Shown here piece after piece: positions 18,001 to 27,000 of a stretch of 64,000 nucleotides of DNA (positions are counted from its first letter, which is position 1; the number at the start of each line of letters is the position of its first letter). The DNA lies in NCBI RefSeq assembly GCF_058153355.1, contig NZ_CM177019.1. The stretch is one strand, 5' to 3'. Position numbers: made by a program.

Positions 18001-21000
18001 GGTTTGCCGTCGGTACGCGCCATTCCCTGAGCGATAAACCCCGCGCCCTGTTCATGGCGAGCCAGAATATGGCGGATTTGCGTGCTTTGGCTTAAGGCGT
18101 CGTAAACAGGCAGGATAGAACCGCCCGGAATGCCCGTCACAATCTTAATGCCCTGCTGTTCCAGGAAATGAACGATAAATTCTGCGCCGGTAAAGCGCTT
18201 ACGTGTCGATGATGTGCCCGAACTTGCCATGCTCCAGTCCTTTTCTTCTGGGCCGACTTTCCGGGAGGTGCTTAAACGAAAAACCCCGCCCGGTTTGCGC
18301 CGGCGGGGTTTTGGAATCGTGTGTTGTTCCAGTCCCTACGGCGCATTGCCGACGACCACCACCACACGCACGACGACCACTGCGGCGGATGGCGCAGTTG
18401 GTAGTAGTTTTGCGTTGAGCATGGAAGTAGTCATTGGGGACCTTGTTGGTTTTGTGTTTAACAATATTTATACAAGCACAGGTTTACAGGGGAGACAATG
18501 GAAAATTTTTCATCAAGGGAAAATTGAGGGATTGATCACGTTTTGTACTGAAAAGCAGGCAATAAAAAACCCCGCCGGAGCGAGGTTTCGTCAGCCGCCC
18601 GCGGCTGGTAACCGCAAAGCACACTGTATTATGTCAACACTGAAAGTATACGTGTTCCGCGCAGAACGCGCAATTTCGGCACGAATTTTGACGTATTTAG
18701 TACATAGTTGAGTATCGATCACAGTTTACGTTTTGTCTAAATATTACTGTTTATTTATACAGTGAACTTCTATAATATCACTGTACGCAATGTGTTATGC
18801 GGGGGCCGCATCGTTACCCGGCGCACTAAGTCCTGGCTGAAACGGGTGGTGCCGTCAGCGCCTTAACCCCGCGTGAGCACACTGTGTTATGTCAACAAGC
18901 ACAACGTTTCTCCTTGAGATACCGCGTGCACAACAGCTGGCAACAGGCAGCGGAAAGGTACGTCAGCTGGCAGTGCTCCTGAACCACAGGAGACGCGTAT
19001 GAGCCTGGTGGATATCGCCATTCTTATCCTCAAACTCATTGTTGCAGCACTGCAACTGCTTGATGCTGTTCTGAAATACCTGAAGTAATTCAGATTCAAG
19101 TCGCACCAAAGGGGAGCGGGTAACCGCTCCCCTTTCATATTTAGCGTGCGGGTTGGTGTCGGATGCGATGCTGATGCATCTTATCCGCCCTACCATCCCT
19201 CCCGGCAACATTTATTGCCGCTTTTGTTTACATATTCTGCCGCTAAACAATTCCCCATTCCTGGCGTATATCTGGCTAACATTCATCAATGTGATAGATT
19301 CCTCTCCCGCATTTATGGGAATGCGTAGTGACTTATTCTAATTATTTTTATAAAAGCATCCGTGATAATGAAAAGGCATAGAAACGTCAATTTGTTATTG
19401 ATGTTGGTATTACTCGTGGCCGTCGGTCAGATGGCGCAAACCATTTATATTCCAGCTATTGCCGATATGGCGCGCGATCTCAACGTCCGTGAAGGGGCGG
19501 TGCAGAGCGTAATGGGCGCTTATCTGCTGACTTACGGTGTCTCGCAGCTGTTTTATGGCCCGATTTCCGACCGCGTGGGCCGCCGACCGGTGATCCTCGT
19601 CGGAATGTCCATTTTTATGCTGGCAACGCTGGTCGCGGTCACGACCTCCAGTTTGACGGTGTTGATTGCCGCCAGCGCGATGCAGGGGATGGGCACCGGC
19701 GTAGGCGGTGTAATGGCGCGTACTTTGCCGCGTGATTTATATGAACGGACACAGTTGCGCCACGCTAATAGCTTGTTAAATATGGGTATTCTCGTCAGTC
19801 CGTTGCTCGCACCGTTAATCGGCGGTCTGCTGGATACGATGTGGAACTGGCGCGCCTGTTATCTCTTCCTGTTGGTACTTTGTGCCGGTGTGACCTTCAG
19901 TATGGCGCGCTGGATGCCGGAAACGCGTCCGGTAGATGCACCACACACGCGCCTGCTTACCAGTTATAAAACGCTTTTCGGTAACAGCGGTTTTAACTGT
20001 TATTTGCTGATGCTGATTGGCGGTCTGGCCGGGATTGCCGCCTTTGAAGCCTGCTCCGGCGTGCTGATGGGTGCGGTATTAGGGCTGAGCAGTATGACGG
20101 TCAGTATTTTGTTTATTCTGCCGATTCCGGCGGCATTTTTTGGAGCATGGTTTGCCGGGCGTCCTAATAAACGATTCCCGACGTTGATGTGGCAGTCGGT
20201 TATCTGCTGCCTGCTGGCTGGCTTGCTGATGTGGATCCCCGACTGGTTTGGCGTGATGAATGTCTGGACGCTGCTCGTTCCCGCCGCGCTGTTCTTTTTC
20301 GGTGCCGGGATGCTGTTTCCGCTGGCGACCAGCGGCGCAATGGAACCGTTCCCCTTCCTGGCGGGCACGGCGGGCGCGCTGGTCGGCGGTCTGCAAAACA
20401 TTGGTTCCGGCGTGCTTGCGTCGCTCTCTGCGATGTTGCCGCAAACCGGTCAGGGCAGCCTGGGGTTGTTGATGACCTTAATGGGATTGTTGATCGTGCT
20501 GTGCTGGCTACCGCTGGCGACGCGGATGTCGCATCAGGGGCAGCCCGTTTAAGCTCACGTCACCGCAGCATCGTCATCAGCTCCATGGGAGAACGATGCT
20601 GCTTTATCAGATCACGCATCACCCGCATATGCGGCGCGGAGTAAGAATAAAACGCCTGATAGCCCGCACAAAGCACGTTGTCTGGCGTCTCCTCCCTAGC
20701 GTGCGGGCACAGCCGATGCCAGTCGCACGCCTGGCAGCCACGGCCCGGTTGCGGGTTTTCGCTGCCACACCATTTTTGTAGGGTGGCGTCAAAAAGCTCA
20801 ATCGAGATACGACTAATATCTGCCCGTACCCAACACTCGAACAGGGCAATTAAAAATTTCCCCCACAGCTCTGCTGTCACCGAAGCGGCCGTCAGATCGC
20901 CCCGGTCATCAAATTCAAGATGGGGAATAAGCTGTACGGAGCGGATGCCCCGCTGTTTGAAATTGTAATAAAAATCGGCAGGTTGCAGAGCATCCTTATA

Positions 21001-24000: not shown

Positions 24001-27000
24001 GCCCGGCATAGACGCCAATCATAGCGAACAGGATACCAATTGACGCGATCTTGACGTTTTTCCACGGTTTCATGTCCACCGCAAACGCATCTTTGAAGGT
24101 GAACGGCGTGGCGCGCGGTTTGATAAAACCGATCACCAGCATCACTACCACGTTGATACAGAACGTACAGGCCAGCACATAGAGGAAATGGAAGTCGAAC
24201 TTCACCAGATAGTTGATGGTGATGTAGCTGATTATGCCAATCCCCATCGCCACTTTTGCCGCCAGCGCCGGAATGCGGGGGAAGAAAAAGCCCATAATGA
24301 TGATGGTAACCAGCGGCACGTTGTAAATACCGTTGAGCTGTTTCATCCAGCTATACAGCCCCTGCGGCGCGTTGGCGATCCACGGCGCGACCAGCACCGA
24401 AACGATGGCGATAAAGAAACCAAATTTGCGCCCAACGGTGACCAGCTGTTGCGGCTCGGCATTCTGGTTAATGATGCGCCGGTAAATACCCATACTGAAT
24501 AACGTACTGGCGCTATTCAGAAAGCCGTTGAAGGTACTGATCACCGCACCAAATAACACCGCGCCGAAGAAACCCACCAGTGGCACTGGCAGAACGTTAT
24601 TGACCAGCGTCGGGTAGGCCATGTCGGCTTTAGGTAAATCCTGATACAGATGAAACGCAATCAACCCTGGCAGCACCAGTACCAGCGGGTCGAGCATTTT
24701 CAGCACCGCCGTTAACAGCGCCCCCTTTTGCCCTTCCGCCAGGCTTTTTGACGCCAGCGTGCGTTGCACGATGCCCTGATTTGTACACCAGTAAAAGGTG
24801 TTCACCAGAATCAAACCGGTAAATGCCGCGCCAATCGGCAAGGGATCGGTCGGGCCACCGACTGAGTTTAATTTCTCGGCGTGAACGGTGGTGAGTTGCT
24901 CAATGCCCTGCATAAAGCTACCCTTGCCCATCGCGATCAGGCCAAATACCGGCACCATCAACCCGCCGATAACCAGCCCAATACCGTTGATGGAGTCCGC
25001 CACTGCCATTGCGCGCAGCCCACCAATCACCGCATACAGAATCCCCGCCAGACCGAGCAAAATCACCAGTAACCAGATAGCCGCACCGTGAGAAATTTGT
25101 AACGATTCCCCGACGTGAAACAGGCTGTTGAGCGCCAACGCGCCGGAGTAGAGAACAATCGGCAGAAAGCAGACACCGGTGGCAATGAGGAAGCAGAAGT
25201 CGATGATAATACGCGTCGTTTTATCATAACGTTCCTCCAGGAAATCGGGGATGGTGGCAATGCCACGCTTCAGATAGCGCGGTAAAAAGATTAGCGCGAG
25301 GAAGATCAGCGTCACCGCAGAAGTGACTTCCCAGCCCATCACCGACATGCCGCTTTTGTAGGCCTGCCCGGAAAGTCCAACCAGTTGTTCCGTGGAAAGG
25401 TTGGTTAACATTAACGAAGCGGCAATAACCGGCGCTTTTAGTGAACGTCCGGCAAGAAAATAGCCTTGTTGCGATCCGGTATCTGTTTTGCGGACCTTCC
25501 ACCAGGTGATGACCGCCACCAGCAGCGTAAAACCGACAAAACTCAAGATTTGTAACGAATTCATCTCATAGCCCTTATTTATGTTTATGTCCCGGACGCA
25601 TGAATATAGGGAGAGGTAAAATGCGTCGGGTCAGGCAGTCAGATTCTTAAAATACAAACGTCGTATCCCTGAACGGATTGTTTTCTGTTAAGTTCAGGTT
25701 GTGAGCATAATTCGCCGGAGGGATATTAAAATGAATGGAAAATTGCAAAGTTCGGATGTAAAAAACGAAACTCCGTACAATATTCCCTTATTGATTAACG
25801 AAAATGTGATCTCCAGCGGAATTTCTCTGATCTCGCTCTGGCATACCTACGCCGACGAGCATTATCGGGTGATCTGGCCGCGGGACAAGAAGAAACCGCT
25901 TATCGCCAACTCATGGGTTGCGGTGTATACCGTACAAGGATGTGGGAAAATTATTTTAAAGAATGGTGAACAAATAACACTGCATGGCAACTGTATTATA
26001 TTTTTAAAGCCAATGGATATTCACTCTTATCACTGTGAAGGTTTAGTCTGGGAACAGTACTGGATGGAATTTACCCCCACAAGTATGATGGATATTCCCG
26101 TCGGTCAGCAAAGCGTTATTTATAATGGCGAAGTTTATAATCAGGAACTCACCGAAGTTGCTGAATTAATTACTTCACCAGAAGCAATAAAAAATAATCT
26201 GGCAGTCGCTTTTCTGACGAAAATTATTTATCAGTGGATTTGTCTTATGTACTCAGACGGTAAAAAAGATCCACAACGGCGGCAAATTGAAAAACTAATT
26301 GCCACTTTACATGCCAGTCTGCAACAACGCTGGAGCGTAGCTGATATGGCTGCCACGATCCCCTGTAGCGAAGCCTGGTTGCGTCGTCTGTTTTTACGCT
26401 ATACCGGCAAGACGCCGAAAGAATATTACCTAGATGCACGTCTGGATCTGGCGCTATCGCTATTAAAGCAACAAGGGAACTCGGTTGGCGAAGTCGCTGA
26501 TACACTCAACTTCTTCGACTCCTTTCATTTCAGCAAAGCCTTTAAGCATAAATTTGGTTATGCGCCGTCAGCCGTGCTGAAGAATACGGACCAGCACCCA
26601 ACGGATGCCAGTCCACACAATTAACGTAACTCTGGCCAGTACGCTTTGTTGGCCTCCAGCAACTCATCCAGAATAGCTTTGGCGACCGAGGCGCTCGGTA
26701 CCTTTTTCGACAGGGTAATCGCCTGCCACAGGTGCTGATATGAACGCTGTTCCCAGGCGTCCACGACCAGTTTTTCCACCGCCACTTGCTGACTCATTAA
26801 CCCTTTCTGAAACTGCGGGATATCGCCGACCACCAGTGGTTCTGGTCCGTTGTGCCCGACCAGACACGGGATCTCGACCATCGCTTCATCATCAAAGTTA
26901 TGAATTGCCCCGTTGTTAGGCACAATCAGCAACATCCGCTCCTGAGTGTTGAAGGCAATTGCCGCCGCCAGATCGACGATGTATGACGCATGTTCGTCAA

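Follow-up and report, generated by a model that had tools for sequence, protein, structure and literature searches.

Cys-type sulfatases depend on formylglycine, and in gene pairs such as atsB/atsA of Klebsiella and aslB/aslA and ydeM/ydeN of E. coli, an S1 sulfatase gene adjoins the gene for a radical S-adenosylmethionine (SAM)/SPASM maturase, an anaerobic sulfatase-maturating enzyme (anSME). The enzyme from Clostridium perfringens, anSMEcpe (PDB 4K36-4K39), holds its auxiliary cluster Aux I with Cys255, 261, 276, and 330 and its auxiliary cluster Aux II with Cys317, 320, 326, and 348 (PMC5682303). A third maturation system for Cys-type sulfatases in E. coli, which is neither AslB nor YdeM, is attributed to Benjdia et al. 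2007 in the passages of PMC8379841 and PMC5682303 that cite that work. We analyzed the yid cluster at positions 20560-26624 of a 64,000-nucleotide stretch of DNA (contig NZ_CM177019.1, assembly GCF_058153355.1; "the window" below), an interval of E. coli chromosome flanked by emrD and glvA. The yidL/yidK/yidJ cluster and its gene names are already known, and the cluster is functionally uncharacterized; the literature that we searched covers yidL regulation, a yidK metabotype, and enrichment in clade II strains, and no functional study on YidJ or YidF. A first-pass annotation had described a conserved module for the use of a sulfated substrate, in which a Cys-type sulfatase (yidJ) is co-oriented with a sodium:solute symporter (yidK) and a Cys-rich, SPASM-like maturase-type protein (yidF), with a divergent AraC-family regulator (yidL). 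Our analysis points to another reading, which we hold to be moderately likely: the locus is the Escherichia version of a conserved Enterobacterales operon that has been split and partly dismantled, leaving a working yidLKJ core and a remnant YidF. Four elements are new here: YidF as a stable remnant that is under selection and has only Aux II, the recovery of the complete ancestral operon in relatives, the conserved neighborhood of maturase and DUF202 pair, and a Lys/Arg428 signature in YidK.

The product of yidF in this genome, which we call mini-YidF, has no match in Pfam, neither to radical SAM (PF04055) nor to SPASM. It scores 74.2 bits against the anSME model TIGR03942 (cutoff 349.45), covering model positions 160-245 and a C-terminal stretch, and 69.9 bits against NF010308 (cutoff 484). 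The alignment to anSMEcpe spans residues 176-247 and 315-370 of that enzyme, whose radical-SAM motif CX3CX2C lies in the N-terminal 175 residues; neither these nor residues 248-314 have a counterpart. YidF residues C108, C111, C117, and C130 align with the Aux II ligands C317, C320, C326, and C348, and the Aux I ligands are all absent: the equivalents of C255, C261, and C276 fall in a deleted segment of ∼55 residues, and that of C330 is lost in a 4-residue gap after C117. An AlphaFold model built from a 57-sequence alignment (predicted local distance difference test score 84, predicted template modeling score 0.82) finds its only strong structural matches in anSMEcpe chains (E 4e-6, query-normalized template modeling score ∼0.6), and mini-YidF is homologous to that enzyme in both sequence and fold. 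SPASM and twitch domains are known from proteins in which they are attached to a radical-SAM core; mini-YidF keeps the C-terminal half of the SPASM domain, with the CX2CX5C...C ligands of the surface-exposed Aux II, yet both the core to which it would be attached and Aux I are gone. What ties the protein to the anSMEs is this Aux II ligand set together with common descent from the positional orthologue, as seen in the position after yidG, the start-codon overlap, and a C-terminal tail shared with the 362-391 aa enzymes of 34 related loci; the radical-SAM core, the Aux I ligands, and a score above the family threshold are all missing. Since a protein with neither the radical-SAM cluster motif nor the Aux I segment can carry out no radical reaction, YidF in this genome, judged by its sequence, cannot be a radical-SAM maturase. 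The description of a SPASM-like maturase-type protein therefore does not hold for a gene product that retains only the C-terminal part of such an enzyme.

The complete form of the operon is preserved in relatives. In [Enterobacter] lignolyticus, the same chromosomal site carries a divergent yidL and the series yidK-yidJ-yidH-yidG-yidF, with no yidI and with genes that overlap or lie at most 20 bp apart; its YidF, encoded at L006:11211-12335, is a radical SAM/SPASM protein of 374 aa that starts MTGCHVMAKPAGSRCNLRCRYCFY and ends in the same tail as E. coli YidF, the invariant APHMRVMRDLIKQHRSPMELM. In E. lignolyticus numbering, the short YidF forms consist of a stub of ∼7 residues, then ∼153-245, and then ∼298-370; in the window protein, the stub has 6-7 residues and the two segments were also delimited as ∼153-243 and ∼303-370. 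The short forms have lost residues 8-152 of the full-length orthologue, and with them C15, C19, and C22, as well as C246, C252, and C267. Every one of them retains C309, C312, C335, and one of the two residues C318 and C322, and in the Leclercia/Silvania clade another residue takes the place of the Aux I ligand C322. A YidJ profile run against a single genome of each species yielded 80 loci, onto which we mapped the seven yid proteins and full-length YidF. Contiguous yidL, yidK-yidJ-yidH-yidG-yidF with a YidF of 362-391 aa occurs at 34 species-level Enterobacterales loci, including those of Citrobacter, Kluyvera, Trabulsiella, Atlantibacter, Pluralibacter, Buttiauxella, Pantoea, Rahnella, Erwinia, and Limnobaculum, and two further loci show the full operon layout with frameshifts. 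A short YidF (165-176 aa) is found at the YidJ loci of Escherichia, Klebsiella oxytoca/spallanzanii, Superficieibacter, Salmonella arizonae, and one further genus, and Phytobacter, Tenebrionibacter, and Cedecea have either no YidF or a 31-aa stub of it. Two proteins that were considered as forms of intermediate length (P0087 and P0104) are fragments of ordinary full-length genes. The trio of AraC-type regulator, symporter, and sulfatase is conserved from Enterobacterales to Vibrio, Marinomonas, and Halomonas. The conserved module of the first-pass annotation thus stands for yidL/yidK-yidJ and not for yidF in this genome, and its maturase belongs to the ancestral operon with the full-length enzyme.

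As in the known anSME sulfatase operons, an S1 sulfatase gene and a radical SAM/SPASM maturase gene share a locus in these relatives, whose full-length YidF has all 3 + 8 cluster cysteines. The yid arrangement in the window differs from them in that the maturase lacks its radical-SAM core and Aux I, the sulfatase is predicted to be cytoplasmic and not exported, and it is paired with an SGLT-type importer. In addition, two DUF202 membrane genes always lie between the yid sulfatase and the maturase, which to our knowledge is not a feature of the classical ats, asl, and yde pairs.

Seven genes make up the interval in the list of open reading frames (ORFs), with yidI on the opposite strand between yidF/G/H and yidJ/K (Table 1). 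The four genes named in the first-pass annotation are real, and their limits (those of yidF, yidJ, and yidK and the end of yidL) agree exactly with the ORF list; yidG, yidH, and yidI, which lie between yidF and yidJ, had been missed. The yidK stop codon overlaps the yidJ start (ATGA), the yidG stop codon overlaps the yidF start in the same way (ATGA), and yidH and yidG overlap by 11 nt. After the yidJ stop codon, an inverted repeat folds on the yidJ strand with -19.7 kcal/mol (z = -2.9), a stability reached in 0 of 200 shuffles; no U-tract follows it, and it probably serves yidKJ as a hairpin at the 3' end or as a weak terminator. Because yidI on the opposite strand and this hairpin intervene, yidF is not adjacent to yidJ and is separated from yidKJ. 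The divergent layout also means that the yidHGF promoter must lie in the yidH-yidI region of this genome, where a consensus promoter scan gave nothing convincing. Co-transcription of yidF with yidJK is very unlikely on this layout, and a single module that includes yidF is refuted as far as sequence can tell.

A good Shine-Dalgarno sequence (AAGGAGG) precedes yidI, and its product has no match in Pfam or NCBIfam. Among loci L001-L086, the gene occurs only in Escherichia, Phytobacter, C. youngae, and S. arizonae (broken), a distribution that marks it as a lineage-restricted insertion splitting the ancestral operon. In two E. coli proteins (P0116 and P0117, 641 and 632 aa), YidJ is fused in frame to YidH via 33 linker residues through a deletion of yidI and the last yidJ codons in some E. 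coli strains; these fusions show that yidI is dispensable and that the yidI-yidJ junction is unstable. Synonymous divergence (dS) is uneven along the cluster: against loci L007 and L008 it is 0.14-0.18 for yidK (likewise for yidJ against L007) and 0.38-0.85 for yidH, yidG, and yidF in the same genome pairs, which suggests a recombination mosaic with a breakpoint near yidI-yidJ.

Short YidF is also found where YidJ is not. At the same chromosomal site, a Citrobacter genome and a Leclercia metagenome contig carry yidH-yidG-mini-yidF without yidI, yidJ, yidK, or yidL, so mini-YidF and its two membrane partners are kept there without YidJ. In Silvania sp. (L088:2062-8504), yidH-yidG-mini-yidF stands beside a different sulfatase of 494 aa, PTS IIB (phosphotransferase system), EIIC-GAT, and an arylsulfotransferase-like gene. 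These make up another set of sulfate-ester genes, unrelated to the yid one, at this chromosomal site.

YidG (46 bits) and YidH (67 bits) both exceed the DUF202 cutoff of 23.4 bits (PF02656), and the YidH orthologue profile matched 3071 cluster representatives. YidH aligns over its full length with Vtc1, a membrane subunit of the yeast VTC polyphosphate polymerase/channel, in which DUF202 forms the membrane domain, at a weak E of 0.002-0.004 and with a shared ANERTFLxW motif. Like the VTC subunits (Vtc1, PDB 7YTJ, 8I6V, 9UMG), YidH and YidG are co-encoded paralogous partners; unlike VTC, they are bacterial, ∼115-120 aa long, and have no SPX or polymerase domain. In Vibrio and in an Enterobacterales metagenome-assembled genome, a maturase of ∼400 aa adjoins a YidH homologue, Marinomonas has both an anSME and DUF202 within its sulfatase locus, and Psychromonas keeps the DUF202 pair. 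Distant DUF202 genes (L089:6001-7807, L092:6001-6668, and L090:1094-1802) again form overlapping pairs, a YidH-like gene followed by a YidG-like one; one pair has an aquaporin (MIP) gene directly 3', one adjoins lutABC/GntR, and one adjoins 6-phosphogluconate dehydrogenase. Pairing thus looks like a universal feature of the bacterial family, and a general link of DUF202 to sulfatases was rejected given the unrelated contexts of these three pairs; a 125-aa ORF after one of them, considered as a YidF counterpart, is unrelated to YidF. The DUF202 pair is a general membrane device, and its link to the maturase is particular to these Gammaproteobacteria. A reported match of YidH in a multicopy screen for a d-alanine exporter was not confirmed by the authors' own transport assay (PMC10299036), and we did not adopt that function.

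The sulfatase itself is intact. Pfam Sulfatase (PF00884) covers YidJ residues 4-341 (E 1.8e-70), followed by SGSH_C, and the CTPAR motif at residues 52-56 is unchanged in 13 orthologues, down to 59% identity, so that the loss of the catalytic Cys named in the first-pass annotation as a possible refutation did not appear on alignment. CTPAR aligns with the S/C-T-P-S-R catalytic motif of the solved sulfatases 9IHK and 6PT4, and D12, K100, H102, D284, H285, and K297, which occupy metal/sulfate ligand positions of the sulfatase fold, are invariant among the orthologues. YidJ thus has both the C/S-x-P-x-R signature of S1 sulfatases and their alkaline-phosphatase-fold domain with its conserved ligands. 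Because the sulfatase domain starts at residue 4, YidJ has no signal peptide and is predicted to be a cytoplasmic enzyme. The ratio of nonsynonymous to synonymous divergence (dN/dS) of yidJ is 0.04-0.06, a sign of strong purifying selection, even in lineages that have only a short YidF, which argues that YidJ is presumably active there and that its Cys52 is converted by something else. A YidJ variant of 559 aa (P0115) has an internal tandem duplication of ∼62 residues (ARAGLFTG...GECPP twice) right after the catalytic motif and is probably an inactivating allele or an assembly artifact. According to the literature, yidJ and yidL are enriched in gut-associated Escherichia clade II strains.

The closest solved sulfatases, at ∼30% identity, are S1_30A 9IHK, the exo-2S-iota-carrageenan sulfatase 6PT4, the BT "choline-sulfatase" 7OZ8, and the GlcNAc-6-sulfatase 5G2V; with identity this low and specificities this mixed, we rejected an assignment of the YidJ substrate from solved structures. 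For the S1_30 subfamily, all that our literature search turned up was expression data on one S1_30 gene of Zobellia, which lies in a locus induced by carrageenan.

More can be said from the transporter. YidK belongs to the SSF family (PF00474, E 3.6e-50; NF007790, 857 bits; TIGR00813, 417 bits) and lies on the same strand as yidJ, as the first-pass annotation had it. Among solved structures, it is closest to vSGLT, a Na+/galactose symporter (E 1e-53), and to human SGLT1/2, with E values between 1e-53 and 1e-46 for the best relatives. In vSGLT, galactose is contacted by Q69, E88, N260, K294, and Q428 and a stacking tyrosine (PMC8037263). YidK residues Q60, E79, S82, N255, Y258, W259, and K289 correspond to vSGLT Q69, E88, S91, N260, Y263, W264, and K294, and vSGLT Q428 is Lys408 in YidK, which therefore keeps 4 of the 5 galactose H-bonding residues and the stacking Tyr. 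With its SSF fold, Na+-site serines, and sugar-coordinating residues, YidK falls in the SGLT sugar branch, and position 428 is the sole difference among the sugar ligands. All 18 YidJ-linked symporters examined, YidK included, keep Q69, E88, S91, N260, W264, and K294 (Y263 is kept in 16), and all 18 have a basic residue at position 428, Lys in the Enterobacterales type and Arg in the marine type; the marine symporters keep the same site residues at only 41-46% identity to YidK. Compared with vSGLT/SGLT1 (PDB 3DH4, 2XQ2, 7SL8), YidK keeps the seven corresponding residues and the Na+-site residue Ser364, whereas the YidJ-linked orthologues all differ from vSGLT by Lys/Arg428, Gln425→Ser/Thr, Phe424→Tyr, and Tyr87→Trp. 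The basic residue in the sugar pocket suggests, from the alignment, a fit to an anionic (sulfated) hexose. Lys/Arg428 as a general mark of sulfatase-linked symporters was rejected, as two other sulfatase-adjacent SSS proteins (L044:3762-5504 and L047:14436-16184) keep Gln428; these carry E88→Ala and W264→Ser/Ala, which may be another way to fit an anionic sugar.

The gene neighborhoods of homologues, which are of galactan and glycosaminoglycan type, add to this picture. In Marinomonas, the YidJ/YidK pair lies among two further symporter-sulfatase pairs, a glycoside hydrolase family 36 (GH36) enzyme, and a GLAA-B beta-barrel domain protein, which we take to be of the GH110 alpha-1,3-galactosidase type; the symporter adjoining the GH36 alpha-galactosidase in that locus keeps Gln428. 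In Enterovibrio (L059, L060, and L079, ∼3000-19000), a YidJ homologue of 59% identity lies inside a large locus with its own anSME and with genes for KDG kinase, KDPG aldolase, a SulP permease, GalT, an SDR protein, GH88, GH112 lacto-N-biose phosphorylase, DUF2264, and an ABC binding protein. These loci look like a glycosaminoglycan/mucin disaccharide pathway with desulfation in the cytoplasm. They resemble the E. coli cluster in the order of import and then cytoplasmic desulfation and differ from it in having an ABC binding protein, a SulP permease, and downstream catabolic enzymes, where E. coli has a regulator, a symporter, and a sulfatase only. Given the lack of downstream catabolic genes in the E. 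coli cluster, the desulfated product should be one that the cell already uses. The yidK deletion shows a metabolome signature related to galactose and, on galactose, a growth phenotype (PMC5293155). Taken together, the substrate of YidJ and YidK is quite likely a sulfated sugar; that it is of the galactose type is plausible, at somewhat less than an even chance.

YidL is the divergent AraC-family regulator that the first-pass annotation described. It combines an N-terminal AraC-type ligand-binding domain (AraC_binding, residues 75-141) with a double C-terminal helix-turn-helix (HTH_AraC in two stretches and HTH_18, residues 217-294), as expected of the AraC/XylS family. The yidL transcription start has been placed at the first base of the annotated GTG, which is position 25701 of the window, and the promoter is repressed by H-NS and activated by BglJ-RcsB (PMC3950696). 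Since transcription starts on that GTG, the real yidL start is the ATG at 25731, which is preceded by GGAGGG, is the start given in RefSeq, and yields a product of 297 aa. G+C is 0.40-0.47 across 25250-26500, and yidL with its promoter (25500-26500) stands at 0.40-0.43 against 0.50-0.56 in the rest of the cluster, which fits the reported H-NS repression.

Databases treat YidF as the dedicated maturase of YidJ Cys52 in this genome, with yidF-yidJ-yidK as one functional module, and that view has something to build on: YidF is a true homologue of anSMEs, its RefSeq label is "radical SAM protein", and the positional gene in the 34 related loci is a complete anSME within the yidJ operon. We regard it as extremely improbable all the same, with CX3CX2C, the core (residues 8-152), and the Aux I segment gone, a score of 74 bits where 349 is required, no Pfam radical SAM or SPASM match, yidI and the hairpin between yidF and yidKJ, and the same short gene kept in genomes without yidJ. 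If mini-YidF is not a maturase, it could be a functionless relic, its ORF kept by chance or its translation serving to stabilize the yidHG message, so that yidKJ and yidHG would be the functional units. The gene does have the fastest rate in the cluster, with dN 2-10 times that of its neighbors; residues invariant in the full-length enzymes vary freely and differently in each lineage, YidF is lost or a 31-aa stub in three genera, and DUF202 pairs elsewhere have no YidF-like partner. Yet dN/dS by the Nei-Gojobori method is far under 1 in every comparison of short yidF: 0.10-0.24 within Escherichia, 0.06 for two Klebsiella, 0.19 for two Superficieibacter, and 0.16-0.32 between genera, as compared with 0.02-0.06 for yidK/yidJ, 0.01-0.08 for yidH (0.01-0.02 for the window gene), 0.05-0.15 for yidG (0.06-0.13 for the window gene), and 0.10-0.15 for full-length yidF. 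In a collection of 5.8 billion proteins, homologues of E. coli YidF, from Escherichia, Citrobacter, Klebsiella, Superficieibacter, Leclercia, and Silvania, are nearly all 162-178 aa long, with 41-57% identity between genera; the reading frame stays open in more than 10 lineages, which are 42-57% identical. The short forms share 31 invariant alignment columns, including C108, C111, C130, and nearly all of the tail PxMRVMRDLxxxHRSPxxLM, a C-terminal run of ∼20 residues. Their junctions measure 22, 23, 27, 28, 29, 41, and 61 residues and 26, 30, 31, 33, and 40 residues, and such lineage-specific lengths imply several separate indels, with at least 8 distinct lengths and all in frame. Among the cluster ligands, the Aux II set is selectively kept, while one clade has lost C322 of Aux I, and the ATGA coupling with yidG is retained. 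The low dN/dS, the in-frame indels, and the persistence of the trio without yidJKL indicate that mini-YidF is a maintained protein, not a dead pseudogene, and we consider a relic unlikely. A further option, which we put forward tentatively, is that mini-YidF forms an undescribed family of stand-alone, Aux II-only proteins with a single [4Fe-4S] cluster, derived from the maturase, perhaps reduced repeatedly to nearly identical boundaries, and selected as the cytoplasmic partner of YidH/YidG independently of any sulfatase; YidHGF might then be a redox-gated anion (sulfate) channel related to VTC or the electron outlet that full-length maturases normally use.

Whether the reduction took place once also has to be weighed. 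The short forms could descend from a single ancient truncated allele spread between genera by recombination, in line with the nearly identical two deletions that all of them share and with a neighbor-joining tree of the segments common to short and full YidF, in which those of Escherichia, S. arizonae, Citrobacter, the K. oxytoca group, and Superficieibacter form a clade at 98% bootstrap. The short forms of Leclercia and Silvania make up a second clade (83%), which is united with the first in no more than 21% of replicates, and 68% place it with full-length L. adecarboxylata. By identity, short YidF stands at least as close to full-length YidF from related genera as to the short YidF of a different genus: Leclercia short YidF is 68% identical to full-length L. 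adecarboxylata YidF and 45% to the K. oxytoca short form, S. arizonae short YidF is 65% identical to the C. braakii full form, and a further comparison gives 62-65% for related-genus full forms and 42-56% for other-genus short forms. The segment comparison found no derived residues shared among the short forms, the junction lengths differ, the tree of the flanking yidH+yidG follows the species tree with short and full yidF states interleaved, and the 98% clade is explicable by long-branch attraction. Bootstrap pattern, identities, and the yidH+yidG tree together make repeated reduction to the same architecture somewhat more likely, and a single origin is a serious contender that we place below even; long-branch attraction and recombination between alleles may also explain the tree of short forms. 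For YidJ and YidK, the competing proposal is that they serve sulfur scavenging or osmolyte handling, their substrate being a sulfate ester that is not a carbohydrate, for example choline-O-sulfate, an aryl sulfate, or a sulfated amino acid. It draws on the best NCBIfam matches of YidJ, arylsulfatase PRK13759 and choline-sulfatase TIGR03417, and on the choline sulfatases among its solved relatives; the scores, however, are far under the cutoffs (214 of 481 bits and 200 of 433 bits, respectively). YidK in the SGLT sugar branch with 4 of 5 galactose ligands and the stacking Tyr, an AraC-type YidL with a sugar-type ligand domain, the galactose-related phenotype of the yidK deletion, and homologues beside glycoside hydrolases and sugar pathways all speak for a sugar, and we judge a non-carbohydrate ester rather improbable.

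The reading of the locus as a split and partly dismantled operon with a working core and a remnant YidF has points against it. Short yidF evolves 2-5 times faster than its cluster neighbors, and N161, N164, Y174, T180-P181, Q229, and K324-H325, invariant in full-length enzymes, vary lineage by lineage in the short forms; free variation at formerly invariant positions is the pattern expected after the catalytic role has gone. YidF has been lost in Phytobacter, Tenebrionibacter, and Cedecea, so any function is dispensable, and one Citrobacter short form has Tyr at the C318 position. We infer Fe-S binding by mini-YidF from the conservation of its cysteines, and the separation of the yidHGF and yidKJ transcription units is deduced from gene layout, consensus promoter and terminator scans having given counts at or below shuffled expectation. 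The occurrence of DUF202 pairs in unrelated contexts means that the pair carries no sulfatase-specific signal. As to the substrate, whose identity we infer, the solved sulfatases nearest YidJ act on several different substrates, and the Lys/Arg428 argument comes from an alignment; other sulfatase-linked symporters lack this feature.

Under the split-operon reading, the parts could work together as follows. YidL would act as an AraC-type sensor that detects the substrate and switches on yidK-yidJ, the locus being otherwise silenced by H-NS. YidK would import a small sulfated hexose-type sugar with Na+, sulfated galactose or a galactoside being the leading candidate, and YidJ would cleave the sulfate ester in the cytoplasm, so that the sugar could join ordinary metabolism without further dedicated enzymes. 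In relatives, the complete radical SAM/SPASM YidF would convert YidJ Cys52 to formylglycine. In Escherichia, yidI has been inserted on the opposite strand, YidF has shrunk to 165 aa, and another system must mature YidJ, with the further Cys-type maturation activity of E. coli as the obvious candidate. Such a third maturation system would explain the dismantling of the dedicated radical-SAM enzyme, and mini-YidF, which has no site for radical chemistry, is implausible as that system. Mini-YidF, translationally coupled to the YidH/YidG pair even in genomes that lack the sulfatase, would most likely be a small cytoplasmic subunit, of Fe-S or accessory type, in a YidGH membrane complex whose candidate roles are anion (sulfate) conduction or electron hand-off. 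In the former case, the complex may be an outlet for sulfate freed in the cytoplasm, by analogy with the VTC channel; in the latter, YidGH may accept electrons from the surface-exposed Aux II cluster.

The cluster is a regular part of the E. coli chromosome. Of 5426 complete E. coli genomes, 5422 match the 7-kb stretch 20000-27000 (95-99% identity), and in 5100 of them at least 80% of it is covered; the best match is strain 2017-02-2CC (99.1% identity), annotated in window order as emrD, yidF, yidG, yidH, yidI, yidJ, yidK, yidL, and 6-phospho-alpha-glucosidase. Coordinates transferred from this annotated best match place ivbL at 18337-18435 (-), the toxin gene tisB at 18999-19088 (+), and ysdE at 19212-19286 (-), all between ilvB and emrD and below the length of the ORF list. 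On the 3' side of yidL (26621-29559), the closest annotated genome carries two intact genes, one for a 6-phospho-alpha-glucosidase of 440 aa and one for a PTS EIICB of 538 aa; the raw window ORF is 625 aa. In K-12, the glv genes are in part pseudogenes, and the window strain may thus have a working glv system.

Table 1. Features of the yid interval, in window coordinates
Feature	Positions	Strand	Description
yidF	20560-21057	-	165-aa reduced derivative of an anaerobic sulfatase maturase (mini-YidF)
yidG	21054-21416	-	DUF202 small membrane protein; Pfam PF02656, E 7e-12
yidH	21406-21753	-	DUF202 small membrane protein, first in the yidHGF unit; PF02656, E 2e-18
yidH-yidI divergent intergenic region	21754-21860		107 bp; from gene layout
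yidI	21861-22310	+	149-aa predicted membrane protein, opposite strand
Inverted repeat GCCCGCTGG-N7-CCAACGGGC	22327-22351		Between the convergent yidI and yidJ stop codons
yidJ	22359-23852	-	497-aa Cys-type (formylglycine-dependent) S1 sulfatase
yidK	23849-25564	-	571-aa SGLT-type Na+/solute symporter
yidK-yidL divergent control region	25565-25730		AT-rich; yidL transcription start site at 25701
yidL	25731-26624	+	297-aa AraC/XylS-family regulator

These findings correct an annotation and lead to specific experiments; they do not describe a new kind of system. The databases treat YidF as the maturase of YidJ, a role that its sequence contradicts in Escherichia, and one candidate for the third formylglycine-forming system of E. 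coli is thereby removed. Tests of YidJ activity in E. coli should not count on yidF; the proper partner is the full-length gene of a relative, such as that of E. lignolyticus, and the intact ancestral operon can serve as an experimental system. Lys408, the counterpart of vSGLT Gln428, marks YidK as a probable sulfated-hexose carrier, and the link between maturase and DUF202 pair across four orders of Gammaproteobacteria gives bacterial DUF202 its first functional context. A constrained, H-NS-silenced route for sulfated sugars that almost every E. coli possesses would matter in gut biology for cross-feeding on mucin or on sulfated glycans from the diet.

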